A stretch of DNA of 64,000 nt from Escherichia coli (GTDB lineage Bacteria; Pseudomonadota; Gammaproteobacteria; Enterobacterales; Enterobacteriaceae). How positions within the stretch are numbered: the stretch's first letter is position 1; the number at the start of each line of letters is the position of its first letter. The position numbers are program-made. Shown here one piece after another: positions 1 through 9,000 of this stretch. The stretch lies in the NCBI RefSeq assembly GCF_001677475.2, contig NZ_CP015229.1, one strand, 5' to 3'.

Positions 1-3000
1 ATAAGCCATCGGGAGAGCAGGCGGTGCGCATAGTCTCGTCACGATAGATGATCGGGGATTCAGTAACATTCACGCCGGAAATGAACTCAAACAGGGCTCT
101 GGCGTCGTTCTCGTACTGTTTTCCCCAGGCCAGTGCTTTAGCGTTAACTTCCGGGGTCACTCCGGTGCAGACCTCAGCCAGCAGGGTGTGGAAGTAGGAC
201 ATTTTCATGTCAGGCCATTTCTTTCCTGAGCGGGGTTTTGCTATCACGTTGTGAACTTCTGAAGCTGTGATGACGCCGAGCCGTAATTTGTGCCACGCAT
301 CATCCCCTTGTTTAACAGTTCTCACGTCGATTCCTGTACGTTGCAGGATAATGTCAGGAGTCATGCTGCCACCTTCTGCTCTGCGGCTTTCCGTTTCAGG
401 AATCCAAGAGTTTTCACTGCTTCGGTCTGCGTCAGTTCTGATGATGCGCGAATGTCGCGGCGAAGTATCTGGGAACAGAGCGGCAATAAGTCGTCATCCC
501 ATGTTTTATCCAGGGCGATCAGCAGAGCGTTAATCTCCTGCATGGTTTCATCGTTAACCGGAGTGATGTCGCGTTCCGGCTGACTTTCTGATGCGGTATT
601 TTCGACAATGCGCTCGGCTTCATCCTTGTCATAGATACCAGCAAATCCGAAGGCCAGACGGGCACACTGAATCATGGCTTTATGCCGTAACATCCGTTTG
701 GGGTGCGACTGCCACGGCCCCGTAACTTCTTTGCCTTCGCTGGTTTTGAATGGTTCGCGGCGGCACTCATCCATCCACTCGGTAACGCAGATCGGATGAT
801 TGCGGTCCTTGCGGTAAATCCGGCATGTACAGGATTCATTGTCCTGCTCAAAGTCCATACCATCAAACTGCTGGTTTTCATTGATGATGCGGGACCAGCC
901 ATCAACGCCTACCACCGGAACGATACCATTCTGCTTATCAGGGAAGGCGTAAATCTCTTTCGTCCACGGATTAAGACCGTACTGGTTGGCGACGATCAGC
1001 AGCGCGATGAATTGCGCATCGCTGGCATTGCCTTTAAATGCTGTCTGGCGAAGAGTGGCGATCAGTTCCTGCGGGTCGACAGTATCCATGCCGACACGTT
1101 CAGCCAGCTTCCCGGCCAGCGTTGCGAGTGCTGTACTCATTCGTTTTATACCTCTGAATCAATATCAACCTGGTGACGCGCAATGGTTTCAACCATGTAC
1201 CGGATGTGCTCCGCCACGCGTTCCTGAAATTCAACATCGTCATCAAATGCGCGACTGATTGCCTGTTTGCTGGCACCGTGGCGTTGCAAATGGTCGATGC
1301 AGAGCGATTCAAACAGGTGCTGGGGCAGACCTTTTTCCAGGTCGTCCGCCAGTTCCGTTTCTTTTTCTTCGCGAACGATCTTCTGGTAGTGGCGTGACCA
1401 TGCCAGCTCTTCAATGCGATCAAAAATCGGGCATGTGCTCATCATCTGTTACCCCAAAATTTTCAAGTTTGTTTGCGATCATCATTGCAATACCCGGAAT
1501 TAATGGCGCTGAGGCTATACCTGCAGGATTCGCACATAAACCGTAAACCGCCGCAATCACCACTTGTCTTTTCCAGTCGAGTTTTTCTAATGATGAAGCT
1601 GCTGCTTCGCCAGTTTCATCACTGCAATCGCGATGCGGATCGCTGCCAGCATTCTCCTTGTGAGGATGTTCAGCGCCTTCCATTTTCTCCGGCTCATTTT
1701 CCCGAACTTCAACCTGATTCTCGTCATCGAATGTTTCCTGATATATTGCGTCGCCCATCACCGCACCACAGTCAGGGCAGTTATCCCCGCCAGACTGACC
1801 GCAGGCATTGCAAACTTTTTCTACTTCCTGTTGCGCCACTGGTTCAGGCTGTTTCGTTTCTGGCTCGTTTTGTAACGCATTTGGGCTGTTTTGTTCCGCT
1901 TTCTGGTCGTTCTGTTCCGATTCTTGTTGGTTCTGGTTCACTGAATCGCGGGTTTCAATCCCCTTCACCCATTTCGGATCATTCGGGTCGCTAATCCCCT
2001 CAACAAATTCACCACGTGATGCAGCAAGCCATCGACAGGATTTTTTGATGGAATGTTTTTCCGGGCTTCATGGAGTTCTGCCCGCAGTTCTTGATATTTC
2101 GCATCAACAGAATTTACCTGTGACTGAGCATCCAGCGGCTGCGTGTCCTGATGATGTTCAGTTGCGTCCGGTTCCATTGTTTCAGCCTCTCCCTGTTCAT
2201 CTGCCGTTGTTCCAGATGGTTGCGGTTTTTCTACATCATCCTGTTTTCCTTCTTCTGTTACACGCTGCGGCATCGGGGCAGAGGAACGACCGCAGGCAAT
2301 ATCCACGATTTCCGGATCAGGGTTGGCATGATCAGTTTCAGTCAGTACTTTGTTCAGATATTCAGTGACGTGCGCGGGGGTGACCTCGATCCCAATTGGT
2401 GCTTCTTTCACGGACGCAACCACGATGGCGCGGGAATAATCCAGCCCGCCAGGCATGGTGATGAATTTGTCGCGGAAAACAGAAAAGGGCGGTTTATTTT
2501 CAGCGATAATTTCCTCAATGCGTTTAGCGTGTGCCGGATGAAGGTTATAGATGTCCACGTCCATTGAACGGGCAAGTACGCCAGTGGCTACATCGCGTGC
2601 CAGTGACGTCAGATCGTGGACGAAACCTTCGCCGCGATCGGTGAGGTTCCCGCCGCCAGCATTAGCACCGGAAGCCGTGCGAGTGATGCGTGAAACACGA
2701 TTCCCTTTCCTCCATTCTTTTGTCAGAAGACCGCGATCAATGTGTTCGGTATCCAGCCAGGCTGAAATGAAATTCTTAAATTCATAGGGCTGATGTTTTT
2801 TCGTGATAGAGAAAACTGCCTTAATTGCATCAGTCAGGCGGAGCAGGGCGGCATTATCCAGAGTTGTCGGTTCTGCCATGCCGCGTATGGCCAACAGCAG
2901 ATTCTGGACATAGCTGTTTTCCTGATCCATCTCAAGAGCAGTAATGTGTTCGCGTTGTTCACGGGTGGCATGATGCAGGTATTTCCGATCCCCGGCCGCA

Positions 3001-6000: not shown

Positions 6001-9000
6001 ACTTAAGAGACTATTTAAAAGAGAAACATATCACCCAGCTACAGTTTGGGAAGCTAACGGGTTTATCTCAGGTGCATGTAAGTCGAGTGCTGGGGGGCTA
6101 TGAAAGATTCAGCCCTGAAAAAGCATTACGTGTTGCTGAAGTAACGAATTTCGAGGTTACACCTCATGAACTCCGGCCTGATATCTACCCGAATCCAACC
6201 GACGGTTTACCTGTTGGATGTAAGGCTAACACACAAAATACACAGGAGTTGATTCATGAAAATCAGGCATGAGCACATCGAATCAGTGCTGTTAGCCCTG
6301 GCAGCCGAAAAAGGGCAGGCGTGGGTCGCTAACGCAATTACTGAAGAATATCTGCGCCAGGGGGGCGGCGAATTGCCCCTGGTACCAGGCAAGGACTGGA
6401 ATAATCAGCAGAATATTTATCACCGTTGGTTGAAAGGTGAAACGAAAGCGCAAAGGGAAAAAATTCAGAAACTGATCCCTGCGGTTCTGGCAATTCTTCC
6501 GCGCGAGCTGCGTCACCGACTCTGCATCTTCGATACCCTGGAACGCCGTGCATTACTGGCGGCGCAGGAAGCGTTGAGTACGGCAATTGATGCGCATGAT
6601 GATGCAGTCCAGGCCGTTTACCGGAAAGCACATTTCAGCGGCGGCGGTTCGTCCGGCGATTCTGTTGTTGTTCATTAAGTGAATAGGGTAACTAACAATG
6701 AAAATCAAACCGTTTATCAATGCTGGAAATCTTACTCCCGGCGAACTACGAGACTGGATCCTGAAACTTGCAAAAAATGCAGAAATTGCGGGTTGGGGTA
6801 CAGAAACTTCGGTTCGGAAGCTTCAGAGCGCAGAACTTAGCCTGCGCTCAGTTATGGACGATTTATCCCCAAGAATTAATTTTCTGGGGTCAGAGCAAAT
6901 AATTCGTTCGGAAGATCACTCCAGCGAAGTTGCGGAAGTTCTGAATACTCTGAGGATAACTTTTGCTGCCGTTCGCGATATTCAACGAACCATTCTCTCA
7001 TTGATTTCTCAGCTTCAAGAAATTGATAGTCGCATTCCTGACGGGGGTCATAGAGAGCGTCTTCCAGAATGTGAAGAGCAAGGACAGGGGAAACAGATAA
7101 GGGATCAGTAATACGTTTTTCACTTGCCTGGTATAGCAATCTCGCCAGCGAATCATAGCTACTGGGGCTCAGGAGAGAATCCCGTGAGTGATTTGTAAGA
7201 ATCAGGTGGAAGCGGGTGAGAACTATAGCCCTGCATGTTACCAGGTTAACCATGTCGTGGTCGTGCTGGTTAATTTTGTACACAGTGCGCATGTGATTTT
7301 TAATTTTTTGGCAAACAGCCATTAAAGACATGTCGAACCTCCTTTGGTTCTGTTGATTGGGGAATCACAGATTATATCCGGAGGAAGGTTCGACACCAGA
7401 TGAGGCAATTATGGTTAAGGCTAAAAACATGCCAAATCCCATGCCAAAAACTAAGGCAAACAATGAGCCTTATCGAAAGGTAAAAATAACGATATGGGAT
7501 GATCCCAAATTTAGGGCGTTATCTCCTCTGCCTCCAAGTGGACAGAGTTTGTTTATTTATCTGCTGACCAGTCCATTTACCGGGATTATTCCTGGGTTGT
7601 TTAAAGCCGGGCGGGCAGCAATGGCTGAAGAGTTGGGGTGGGATATCGAAGCCTTTGACTTAGCCTTAGGCGAAGCCATGAATCTTGGCATGGTGAAAGC
7701 AGATATCAAAGCCAGAGTTTTTTGGCTCCCGAATGCTGCGAAACACAATCCGCCAAACTCGATAAATGTCATTAAATCCTGGGCAAAGGCATTCGCTTTA
7801 ATTCCTGATTGCCCTCTCAAATGGGAGGCCAGGGAATCGCTGAGAGCAGCGTCCTACGGGGTTTCTGAGGCTTTGGGGATGGCATTCGATAAGGCAATCC
7901 CTTTGCCTGAGGATAAGCCTAAGGATAAGGCTAACGCTTTGTCATGCGGTATCCAGATAACAGATAACAGATATATAAACCCCACACATAACGCGCGCGA
8001 GAGTGCTCCGGCCAGTGAGGCAAATGGCGTGCCGTTGCAGACAGCGGAACCTGATTACCTGGAAGGCCTGAGCGAACCCATCGGGAAATTTCCGATGACC
8101 GATAGCTGGTATCCGTCACGGGATTTTCGACGACGGGCTGCGTTGTGGGGAGTGGCTCTGCCGGAGCCGGAATTTACACCTGCTGAACTTGCCGCCTTCC
8201 GGGATTACTGGGCAGCGGAGGGGAAAGTTTTCACGCAGGTTCAGTGGGAGCAGAAATTCGCCCGTCACGTAAATCACGTCAGGGCACAGGTTAAACCAGT
8301 CAGCAAGGGGGTGAACCATGCAGCAGCACCAGGTGGCACCGCATCACGGGCAGTTCAGGAAATTCGGGCAGCACGTGAGCAGTGGGAACGTGAAAACGGA
8401 TTTATCAGCGACGGAAACGGCCTGGAAGCTGTGGGAACTCATGGGGGAGGTTTATTCGAACCGCTGGACCCAGAAGAACGGGGCCGCACCATCGAAGCTC
8501 TGGATTGCACAGATTGGCGCGATGACTGAGCAGCAAATCCGGCAGGTCTGCCGCCAGTGCATGGACCGCTGCCGGGCGGGTGAAACATGGCCTCCGGACC
8601 TGGCTGAGTTTGTGGCGCTGATTTCGGAAAGCGGAGCCAATCCATTCGGTCTGACGGTGGATGCTGTGATGGAGGAGTACCGCCGCTGGCGCAACGAGTC
8701 CTGGCGATACGACGGAAGCGATAAATACCCGTGGTCTCAGCCTGTGCTGTATCACATTTGTCTCGAGATGCGTTCAAAGGGGATTGAGCGCCAGATGACC
8801 GAAGGGGAATTAAAACGGCTTGCAGAACGGCAACTGACGAAATGGGCAAAGCATGTTAGTAACGGCCTGAGCGTTCCGCCAGTCCGGCGACAACTGGCGG
8901 CACCCAAACGCCCGTCGGGGCCAACACCGATTGAGTTACTGAAACAGGAGTATGAACGCCGGAAAGCGGCTGGTTTTGTTTGAGTTGAGAAGTAATTTTT

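Follow-up and report, generated by a model that had tools for sequence, protein, structure and literature searches.

Lambda Red Genes Beside a Truncated recE in the Early Region of a Rac-Locus Prophage of Escherichia coli

Introduction

How lambda Red recombination genes come to lie beside a Rac-type immunity region is the question raised by one stretch of Escherichia coli DNA (64,000 nucleotides of contig NZ_CP015229.1, RefSeq assembly GCF_001677475.2; the whole stretch is hereafter called the window). In its first 8983 bp, lambda-like exo, bet and gam genes are accompanied by a short repressor gene, YdaS/YdaT-like genes and a gene for a KilR-like protein. An earlier note on the sequence had read this arrangement as a modular exchange at the Rac locus, where recE and recT are normally found, and had regarded the ydaT-like and kilR-like genes as potentially host-toxic cargo controlled by the repressor. 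The region was compared with lambda, with Rac-family prophages and with complete E. coli genomes. According to this comparison, positions 1–8983 are very probably the early region (recombination, immunity and replication) of a lambdoid prophage of ~46 kb at the Rac/ttcA site, with an immunity region of the KingRac/Rac-SA53 type and a recombination cassette that pre-existed this prophage. The arrangement is ordinary lambdoid mosaicism, which is already known from public genomes and from the published phage KingRac. Its general significance is small. It provides a clean case of equivalent exonuclease/annealase pairs swapped as a unit at a domain boundary inside recE, and the prophage with the swapped pair also carries an immunity specificity other than that of K-12 Rac.

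Results

Location and Modular Composition of the Prophage

The right boundary of the prophage was recognized at 43486–44655 (+), where the window was 97.4% identical to K-12 positions 1434830–1436000, i.e., to the right end of Rac and the adjoining host genes ttcC'-uspF-ompN. The right end (attR) lay near 43614. Hence, the prophage occupied the Rac locus. The left flank was read from the closest complete genome, OkiPb01695, which was collinear with all 8983 bp at 99.3% identity (megablast) and showed the order ttcA-intR-xisR-DUF1187-ralR immediately to the left of exo; in the present stretch, intR and attL fell outside the window.

The comparison of the whole prophage with lambda and Rac resolved the early region into blocks. 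Positions 1–1400 matched lambda 31665–33070 at 92.4% nucleotide identity, and Rac homology extended rightwards from 1597. K-12 Rac DNA was matched at 1599–2738, 3142–4538 and 6250–6679 (90–94% identity), with no match over the repressor and cro-like genes. Rac-SA53 was matched without a break over 1597–6679 (93.8%) and again over 7951–10221; therefore, the window could be described as Rac-SA53 with two swapped segments, namely, the recombination module and a 1.27-kb segment at 6680–7950. The gene order was that of K-12 Rac, i.e., recE-racC-ydaE-kilR-(sieB position)-repressor-cro-like-ydaT-replication. Three of its features had escaped the earlier note, namely, a remnant of recE, homologues of racC and ydaE, and replication genes that are not those of K-12 Rac. 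The modular exchange proposed for a Rac-family prophage was borne out by the Rac-site right flank and by the replacement of recT and of the recE codons from ~588 onwards by exo-bet-gam.

Beyond the Red block, lambda homology was confined to tail genes (27128–32477, lambda V through L; 34888–38756, lambda K, I and J, 94%), and further K-12 Rac homology consisted of an rzpR/rzoR piece, lomR fragments and the right end. The replication, lysis and structural modules were all present, and the prophage was full-length. No complete genome reached 80% coverage of positions 9000–33900; hence, the prophage as a whole was a unique mosaic of familiar modules.

The Lambda Red Block

The exo gene was represented by its 5' part (2–358, −), which encoded the N-terminal 119 aa of a protein with 95% identity to lambda Exo 3–121 (Pfam YqaJ, E = 1.8e-15). 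The gene continued past the start of the window, and the full 226-aa version was present in OkiPb01695. The bet gene (361–1140, −) encoded a Red beta annealase of 259 aa that was 94% identical to full-length lambda Bet (Pfam RecT family, E = 2e-33), and its stop (361) was separated by 3 nt from the exo start (358). The gam gene (1146–1445, −) encoded a short form of the RecBCD inhibitor (98–99 aa; Pfam Gam, E = 5.5e-56, 187 bits against a cutoff of 25) with 80% identity to lambda Gam residues 41–138. Since the lambda DNA homology stopped at 1400, the first ~15 gam codons were not lambda-like. The reading of all three genes as lambda-like was thus confirmed at both the protein and the DNA level. 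The left junction was located in OkiPb01695, in which Rac homology (98.1%) broke off on the exo side of ralR, 10 bp upstream of its start codon, and lambda homology started 10 bp past the exo stop codon.

The recE' Remnant

On the other side of gam, a part of recE was retained. This remnant (recE', 1420–3443, −; Pfam Exonuc_VIII, E = 3.6e-67) was without the nuclease domain and was split into two frames by a 10-bp deletion near 2029, which was mapped against the intact 677-aa gene of OkiPb01695 and the same stretch of OkiPb01676, both of which were without the deletion. According to BLASTP, frame 1 (1965–3443, 492 aa) corresponded to K-12 RecE 1–454 at 75% identity, and frame 2 (1420–1968) corresponded to RecE 479–587 at 68% identity, followed by a hydrophobic tail of 59 aa that was not derived from RecE (1420–1597). 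The breakpoint relative to full-length recE was placed by DNA alignment just after ...GATGAAACTGGCGAAG, near window position 1597. In K-12, the PD-(D/E)XK domain of RecE comprises residues 602–866, and the crystallised nuclease fragment comprises residues 564–866 (PMC11611040). The alignment with RecE ended at ~587, before this domain; hence, the RecE nuclease was absent here. The NCBIfam RecE equivalog score of recE' was 719 bits against a cutoff of 1269. No recT gene was found, and the RecE/RecT pair of Rac-family prophages was accordingly not present. The claim that Red genes stand in place of the Rac recET genes was therefore correct for recT and for the nuclease end of RecE, and had to be amended for the first ~587 recE codons, which remained.

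The truncated form of recE is not simply debris; intact versions of 657–690 aa exist elsewhere (677 aa in OkiPb01695, 657 aa in KingRac and 690 aa in the Stx1 phage PhiR5_2). In three other Stx1 phages, a gene annotated as exonuclease VIII/VII ended in the recE' tail. A tblastn search of 50,697 phage records found this tail only as the recE' C-terminus of these four Stx1 phages, and its peak 19-residue hydropathy was 1.62, which is borderline for a membrane helix. For recE' of OkiPb01695 and PhiR5_2, dN/dS (Nei–Gojobori) amounted to 0.24 over the whole gene and to 0.10 within the tail, at dS values above 1; these figures are suggestive only, because dS was near saturation and a single pair was compared. 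Nuclease-less 'RecE-2' proteins without an assigned role, which may correspond to the present recE', were described in a 2025 survey of lambdoid Rec modules (PMC12315714). It is possible, and is proposed here only tentatively, that the recE' product, which joins the N-terminal part of RecE to a conserved hydrophobic tail and has no nuclease, is a selected, autonomous accessory of Red-type modules and not debris of a swap. If so, the N-terminal two-thirds of RecE, long unexplained, would function independently of the RecE nuclease, and the gene in this window would have been inactivated recently by the 10-bp deletion. 

Distribution of the Cassette

The occurrence of the cassette was examined in 5426 complete E. 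coli genomes with an 801-bp gam/recE' probe and with a second probe across ralR/exo, and a genome was counted as a carrier at a coverage of at least 80%. The gam/recE' junction was present in 16 and the ralR/exo junction in 15 of these genomes, so that about 15 carry the cassette, and the carriers were mostly bovine and mouse isolates. In OkiPb01676, a cassette with 99.2% identity was located in a prophage at yebY with another integrase and another immunity region. Because the cassette was found at a second attachment site and as a diverged copy in Stx1 phages, ralR-exo-bet-gam-recE' is regarded as a mobile, circulating module. Hence, the swap need not have occurred in this lineage or at this locus.

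These counts bear on two other explanations. The mosaic could be an artefact of assembly or scaffolding in which two prophages of one genome were joined. Lambdoid prophages, of which E. coli genomes carry several, share long repeats of the kind that classically leads to misassembly, and the 10-bp and 1-nt (A-run) indels in the window could be sequencing errors. However, the whole 8983 bp were collinear with the complete genome OkiPb01695, and the junctions were reproduced in 15–16 independent complete assemblies, including that of KingRac, which was transferred and re-sequenced experimentally (PMC6731689). The probability of such an artefact is practically nil. A second explanation is a single recent illegitimate recombination between an infecting lambda and a resident Rac in this lineage, reciprocal to lambda-rev. 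The lambda block was compact, extending from 10 bp past the exo stop into gam at 92–93% identity to lambda, and lambda-Rac hybrids are known to form (the lambda-rev recombinants cited in PMC3945230). This event is nevertheless considered very improbable, because both junctions recurred in 15–16 unrelated complete genomes, among them one whose prophage has a different attachment site and integrase. Moreover, the Stx1 phages shared the gam/recE' junction and the tail at ~81% nucleotide identity with dS above 1, and a Red block that was only 92% identical to lambda indicates that lambda was not the direct donor. The acquisition of a pre-existing cassette is thus the preferred explanation. In the literature, no paper that explicitly describes a Red-for-RecET swap in Rac-like prophages was found.

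Repressor and Control Regions

The prophage repressor (5428–5889, −) comprised 153 aa with a helix-turn-helix (HTH) domain (HTH_3, residues 23–75, E = 1e-9) and no S24 peptidase domain, in agreement with its first description as a short HTH-only protein. A repressor of the self-cleaving LexA/cI type, with a C-terminal S24 domain, was therefore not encoded. HTH_31 was the other domain match, matches in the PDB were restricted to the N-terminal domain of lambda cI, and the score of the DicA model was weak (35 bits against a cutoff of 101). KingRac, Rac-SA53 (annotated as dicA) and OkiPb01695 encode exactly the same repressor (100% identity). Its assignment as a RacR homologue was considered and rejected: BLASTP against K-12 RacR gave E = 26, no nucleotide similarity was found over racR and ydaS, and the features common to the two proteins were architectural only (~155 aa, HTH, no S24 domain). 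Since similarity to RacR was not detectable, the phage should be heteroimmune to K-12 Rac. The Rac-type immunity named in the earlier note was therefore retained for the architecture, the synteny and YdaT, and was not supported for the repressor itself.

The sequences on both sides of the repressor gene contained putative control elements. A candidate pL control region (5243–5343, −) had promoter-like sites at 5272–5244 and 5312–5284 and may act as a promoter and operator. The 14-bp motif AATATTAGTAAAAC at 5243–5256 lay over the −10 element of the first of these leftward sites (TTGACT-17-TAATAT, 5272–5244). The exact 14-mer AATATTRGTAAAAC occurred in two copies in the 64 kb, at 5243–5256 and 5905–5918 (−), in opposite orientation around the repressor gene, and a copy with two mismatches was located at 5330–5343. 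The second exact copy fell in the control region (5890–5996) from which the repressor and cro-like genes diverge, and this region also contained a promoter-like site for the repressor (5923–5896). These motifs are candidate operators for the 153-aa repressor. Just past the repressor stop, a perfect 13-bp inverted repeat with flanking A and T runs (5369–5400) resembled the hairpin of a bidirectional terminator.

The Cro position was occupied by an HTH gene (5997–6272, +) that may be a distant member of the YdaS family. Its 91-aa product scored 30.8 bits with Pfam YdaS_toxin against a cutoff of 30 and about as well with the HTH_3 model; it matched phrog_35 (E = 5e-27) and shared 32% identity with K-12 YdaS in a stretch of 50 aa. 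In relatives, this gene is labelled by RefSeq as a YdaS family HTH protein. LexA boxes were sought as a sign of an SOS-controlled antirepressor; three hits with two mismatches were obtained where 1.15 would be expected by chance, and each of them lay in a structural gene.

YdaT, Its Box, and the Toxicity Question

The gene at the CII position, ydaT (6256–6678, +), encoded 140 aa with 95.7% amino acid and 94.2% nucleotide identity to K-12 (Pfam YdaT_toxin, E = 5e-11, 43.3 bits against a cutoff of 21). The YdaS/YdaT-like genes had been noted as divergent; YdaT was not divergent. The start codon of ydaT was spanned by a YdaT-box, TTGATTCATGAAAATCAG (6249–6266, +), with one mismatch to TTGATT-N6-AATCAA, which is the operator of CP-933P (PMC9986795). 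In K-12, the footprinted YdaT-box is ATGATTCATGAAAATCAA; YdaT acts through it to switch on a reverse promoter for racR (PMC11879457). The box in the window matched the K-12 box in position, was near-identical to it in sequence, and also corresponded to the CP-933P operator. Since homology to K-12 began at 6250, YdaT and its box travel together, and the repressor/cro-like pair is exchanged.

Several results from K-12 bear on toxicity. The essentiality of RacR stems from the toxicity of de-repressed ydaS and ydaT (PMC5700377, PMC5700373), and RacR interference led to a 40- to 70-fold rise in the expression of ydaS, kilR, ydaE, racC and further genes of Rac (PMC11014345). KilR inhibits FtsZ and MreB (PMC12482147), and YdaT expression leads to filamentation and death (PMC11879457). 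The suggestion that ydaT and kilR are toxic cargo agreed with these results by analogy, and by the same analogy both genes would be controlled by the 153-aa repressor. However, the present view of YdaS and YdaT is that they are counterparts of Cro and CII (PMC5917428, PMC8630535, PMC9986795), i.e., regulators and not dedicated toxins.

The same genes could be read as a toxin-antitoxin-like addiction module of repressor, YdaS and YdaT, with kilR and ydaT as cargo toxins that benefit the host and not as parts of a lysis-lysogeny switch. The Pfam family names of YdaS and YdaT contain the word 'toxin', and the essentiality of RacR and the lethal filamentation upon YdaT expression, as cited above, point in this direction. 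An addiction module is nevertheless unlikely. The genes occupy the positions of cro and cII (PMC5917428), YdaS and YdaT of CP-933P behave as Cro/CII equivalents (PMC8630535, PMC9986795), and K-12 YdaT activates racR through a box that is conserved here (PMC11879457). Furthermore, the prophage to which the genes belonged was of full length and had modules for replication, lysis and structure, and KingRac, whose repressor is the same, is an active phage (PMC6731689). An immunity region of the lambdoid kind is thus preferred. In practice, automatic labels mislead at this locus: 'toxin YdaT' and 'toxin YdaS' stand on regulators, and 'RecE family exodeoxyribonuclease' stands on a protein without a nuclease domain.

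Other Genes on the Leftward Side

The block racC-ydaE-kilR had the order and strand of K-12 Rac. The racC-like gene (3571–3816, −) was 92% identical to K-12 RacC 1–79 and encoded 81 aa versus 91 aa, with a C-terminus altered by the loss of 1 nt in an A8 run (A7 vs A8 in the alignment). The ydaE gene (3891–4061, −) encoded a small zinc-binding protein of 56 aa with 96% identity to K-12 YdaE (NCBIfam NF041288; score 86.6 bits, cutoff 35). The kilR gene (4061–4282, −) encoded a 73-aa FtsZ/MreB inhibitor that shared 72 of its 73 residues with K-12 KilR (98.6%; NCBIfam NF008465, 161 bits against a cutoff of 92), so that the KilR-like protein was correctly recognized from the outset. Rho and NusG provide a further layer of kilR silencing in K-12 (PMC12482147). 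Upstream of kilR, a sub-threshold match to the small RNA (sRNA) STnc100 was observed at 4275–4451 (−; 33.9 bits against a gathering score of 47), and nothing else was obtained by the Rfam scan of 1–12000 within an E-value limit of 0.1. The K-12 sRNA kilS maps beside this match, at about 4447–4540.

At the sieB position, an open reading frame (ORF) of 77 aa (4676–4909, +) was present, which is hypothetical in relatives ('rac10' in Rac-SA53). It was preceded by a promoter-like site at 4616–4643 and had no family match; it could be a candidate for a different superinfection-exclusion gene. A 33-bp match to the DNA upstream of lambda sieB was observed at 4606–4638. The first gene of the putative leftward operon, orf101 (4871–5176, −), had no Pfam, PHROG or PADLOC match. 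It was considered as an N-like antiterminator and rejected, because it had no family match and no arginine-rich motif was recognized by eye. No N homologue was found, and no terminator-like sites were found on the minus strand from 5218 to 1. The 39 bp at 5174–5212, which comprised the orf101 start codon and the 5' untranslated region, were 100% identical to the start region of K-12 ydaG amid otherwise unrelated DNA. Two readings are offered for this stretch, namely, a leader or regulatory element that was conserved in the leftward operon, or a linker for recombination. A search for defence systems with PADLOC gave nothing credible for the repressor, orf101, the sieB-position ORF, orf137, orf151 or recE'.

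The Replication Side and the Segment 6680–7950

The 1.27-kb segment 6680–7950, between ydaT and the replication gene, was absent from Rac-SA53, and a probe spanning it (6600–8000) was covered to at least 80% in 20 of the 5426 genomes. It contained orf137 (6698–7111, +), which encodes a phage protein (phrog_37051, E = 5e-94). The 3' end of orf137 was overlapped by orf151 (6876–7331, −), an unannotated ORF of 151 aa with a promoter-like site at 7435–7408; it had no Pfam, PHROG, NCBIfam or PADLOC match and a single near-identical phage copy. This copy was found in PP818812.1, 'Actinobacillus phage vB_Apl-pPE4' (host Actinobacillus pleuropneumoniae), which was 95% identical to positions 1593–8983. 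The host assignment of this record looks doubtful.

The replication initiator at the O/YdaU position (7357–8529, +) had a DnaT-like ssDNA-binding domain and matched Pfam DnaT (E = 3.7e-17) and phrog_1408 (replication initiation, E = 9.5e-90). Its start was uncertain, with an ATG at 7411 as a possible alternative and the equivalent of 7615 used in RefSeq relatives. The lambda-P-like helicase loader (8318–8983, +) matched Pfam Phage_lambda_P (E = 1.1e-16) and phrog_109 (E = 4e-63) and was 25% identical to lambda P; its start was likewise uncertain (8318, 8441 or 8522). The initiator ORF and the longest P-like ORF overlapped by 212 nt (8318–8529) in different frames, and both were matched by phrog_15931.

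Features Elsewhere in the Prophage

A pertussis-like AB5 toxin pair was observed in the region 14354–16622, directly downstream of a Q-like antiterminator gene (DUF1133, 14354–15016) and upstream of the lysis genes, in the slot that stx takes in Stx phages. The A subunit (15404–16129) was scabin-like and scored 56 bits with Pfam Pertussis_S1. The putative B subunit (16140–16622) scored 21.5 bits with Pertussis_S2S3, below the cutoff, and is called 'subtilase family AB5 toxin binding subunit' in the RefSeq relative. An IS21-family element (32478–34887), with genes for IstA-like (33295–34794, 499 aa) and IstB (32543–33298, 251 aa) proteins, was inserted into the tail genes, after the lambda L-like and before the K-like gene. 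OkiPb01695 (locus L001, 21945–23397) carried a gene for the adhesin paa together with a fimbrial pseudogene, and the window had other DNA at that place (9743–12690).

Discussion

Proposed Working of the Early Region

In the cassette ralR-exo-bet-gam-recE', a lambda-type exonuclease and annealase together with Gam stand where RecT and the nuclease domain of RecE are otherwise encoded. Such cassettes probably move between lambdoid prophages via homologous recombination in conserved flanks, i.e., ralR on one side and the N-terminal part of recE, racC, ydaE and kilR on the other. The 153-aa repressor, which is presumably non-cleavable, would bind the 14-bp motif in both control regions. By analogy with K-12 Rac, CP-933P and lambda, from which the operators, operons and regulation are inferred, it would shut a leftward operon of orf101, kilR, ydaE, racC, recE', gam, bet and exo, which would continue into ralR, xis and int outside the window. 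It would also shut a rightward operon of the cro/YdaS-like gene, ydaT, orf137 and the replication genes. Upon loss of repression, KilR would stop cell division, Gam would inhibit RecBCD, and Exo and Bet would perform single-strand-annealing recombination. YdaT would bind the box at its own start codon and boost the synthesis of the repressor in a manner similar to that of lambda CII.

Several observations weigh against parts of this interpretation. The 14-bp motif, a candidate operator, is only weakly palindromic. No LexA box, S24 domain or inducing signal was identified in the early region. The reverse promoter that is activated by YdaT in K-12 lies inside ydaS, and this sequence was not conserved here, as homology began at 6250; hence, the CII-like feedback is putative for this immunity type. 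The 10-bp deletion in recE', the 1-nt loss in racC and the IS21-family element in the tail operon point to decay or possibly to errors of sequencing. Because of these indels and the insertion, the prophage may not be fully functional, and the IS21-family insertion by itself may make it defective. The data reveal neither in which direction nor when Red and RecET were exchanged.

Comparison With Known Systems

In lambda, the three Red genes have the same order and orientation as in the window. The genes that surround them in lambda (kil, cIII, ea10, ral, N, cI with its S24 domain, cro and cII) were all absent here, and the position 5' of gam was occupied by recE' instead of kil. The cryptic prophage Rac of K-12 (NC_000913.3, 1411899–1434958) lies at the same site, is similar in KilR, YdaE, RacC and YdaT, and has a YdaT-box at the ydaT ATG. 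It differs in that recT and RecE codons 588–866 stand where exo-bet-gam were found here; ydaF, ydaG and sieB were also replaced. Because the repressor and cro-like genes were unrelated or distant to racR and ydaS, the immunity specificity differs from that of K-12 Rac. Replication is encoded by YdaU and YdaV in K-12 Rac and by a DnaT-domain protein and a P-like loader here, and K-12 Rac is a 23-kb remnant, whereas the present prophage is ~46 kb long.

KingRac is a Rac-like phage of 46.8 kb that replaced the defective Rac of a K-12 invader strain at ttcA in the mouse gut (PMC6731689). The strains IGC_RcoliRes_1.1 and IGC_EcoliInv_1.1 of Frazao et al. (2019; PMC6731689) were both among the cassette carriers. 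KingRac forms particles and is only weakly induced by mitomycin C (PMC6731689), which fits a repressor without an S24 domain. It is reported to recombine frequently with other prophages in vivo (2026 preprint, bioRxiv 10.64898/2026.05.27.728231). The copy in IGC_EcoliInv_1.1 (locus L007) shares with the window the ttcA site, ralR-exo-bet-gam-recE' (91.8% nucleotide identity) and the identical 153-aa repressor, and its cro-like protein and YdaT are 99% and 95% identical to those here. Hence, the Red genes were already combined with this immunity region in a published active phage. In contrast to the window, KingRac has a Rha-family gene at the place of kilR, ydaF-type small genes for orf101, YdaU and YdaV, and an intact 657-aa recE'. 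Rac-SA53 (KU052037) also lies at ttcA, has the identical repressor and the same kilR, ydaE, racC and ydaT, and is 93.8% identical over 1597–6679, but retains full-length recE (1048 aa) and recT and is missing the segment 6680–7950.

The Stx1 phages PhiR5_2, phiSTEC1589-Stx1c, and the Shigella phages 75/02 Stx and POCJ13 show an exo-bet-gam-recE'(690 aa)-kil arrangement with the same recE' tail. Their nucleotide identity to the window is ~81%, and they differ from it by immunity of the lambda type (N-cI-cro-cII), another integrase and the lack of ralR. The lambda-rev phages, which were selected in the laboratory, represent the reciprocal product of a Red/RecET exchange, i.e., a lambda backbone with the recET genes of Rac.

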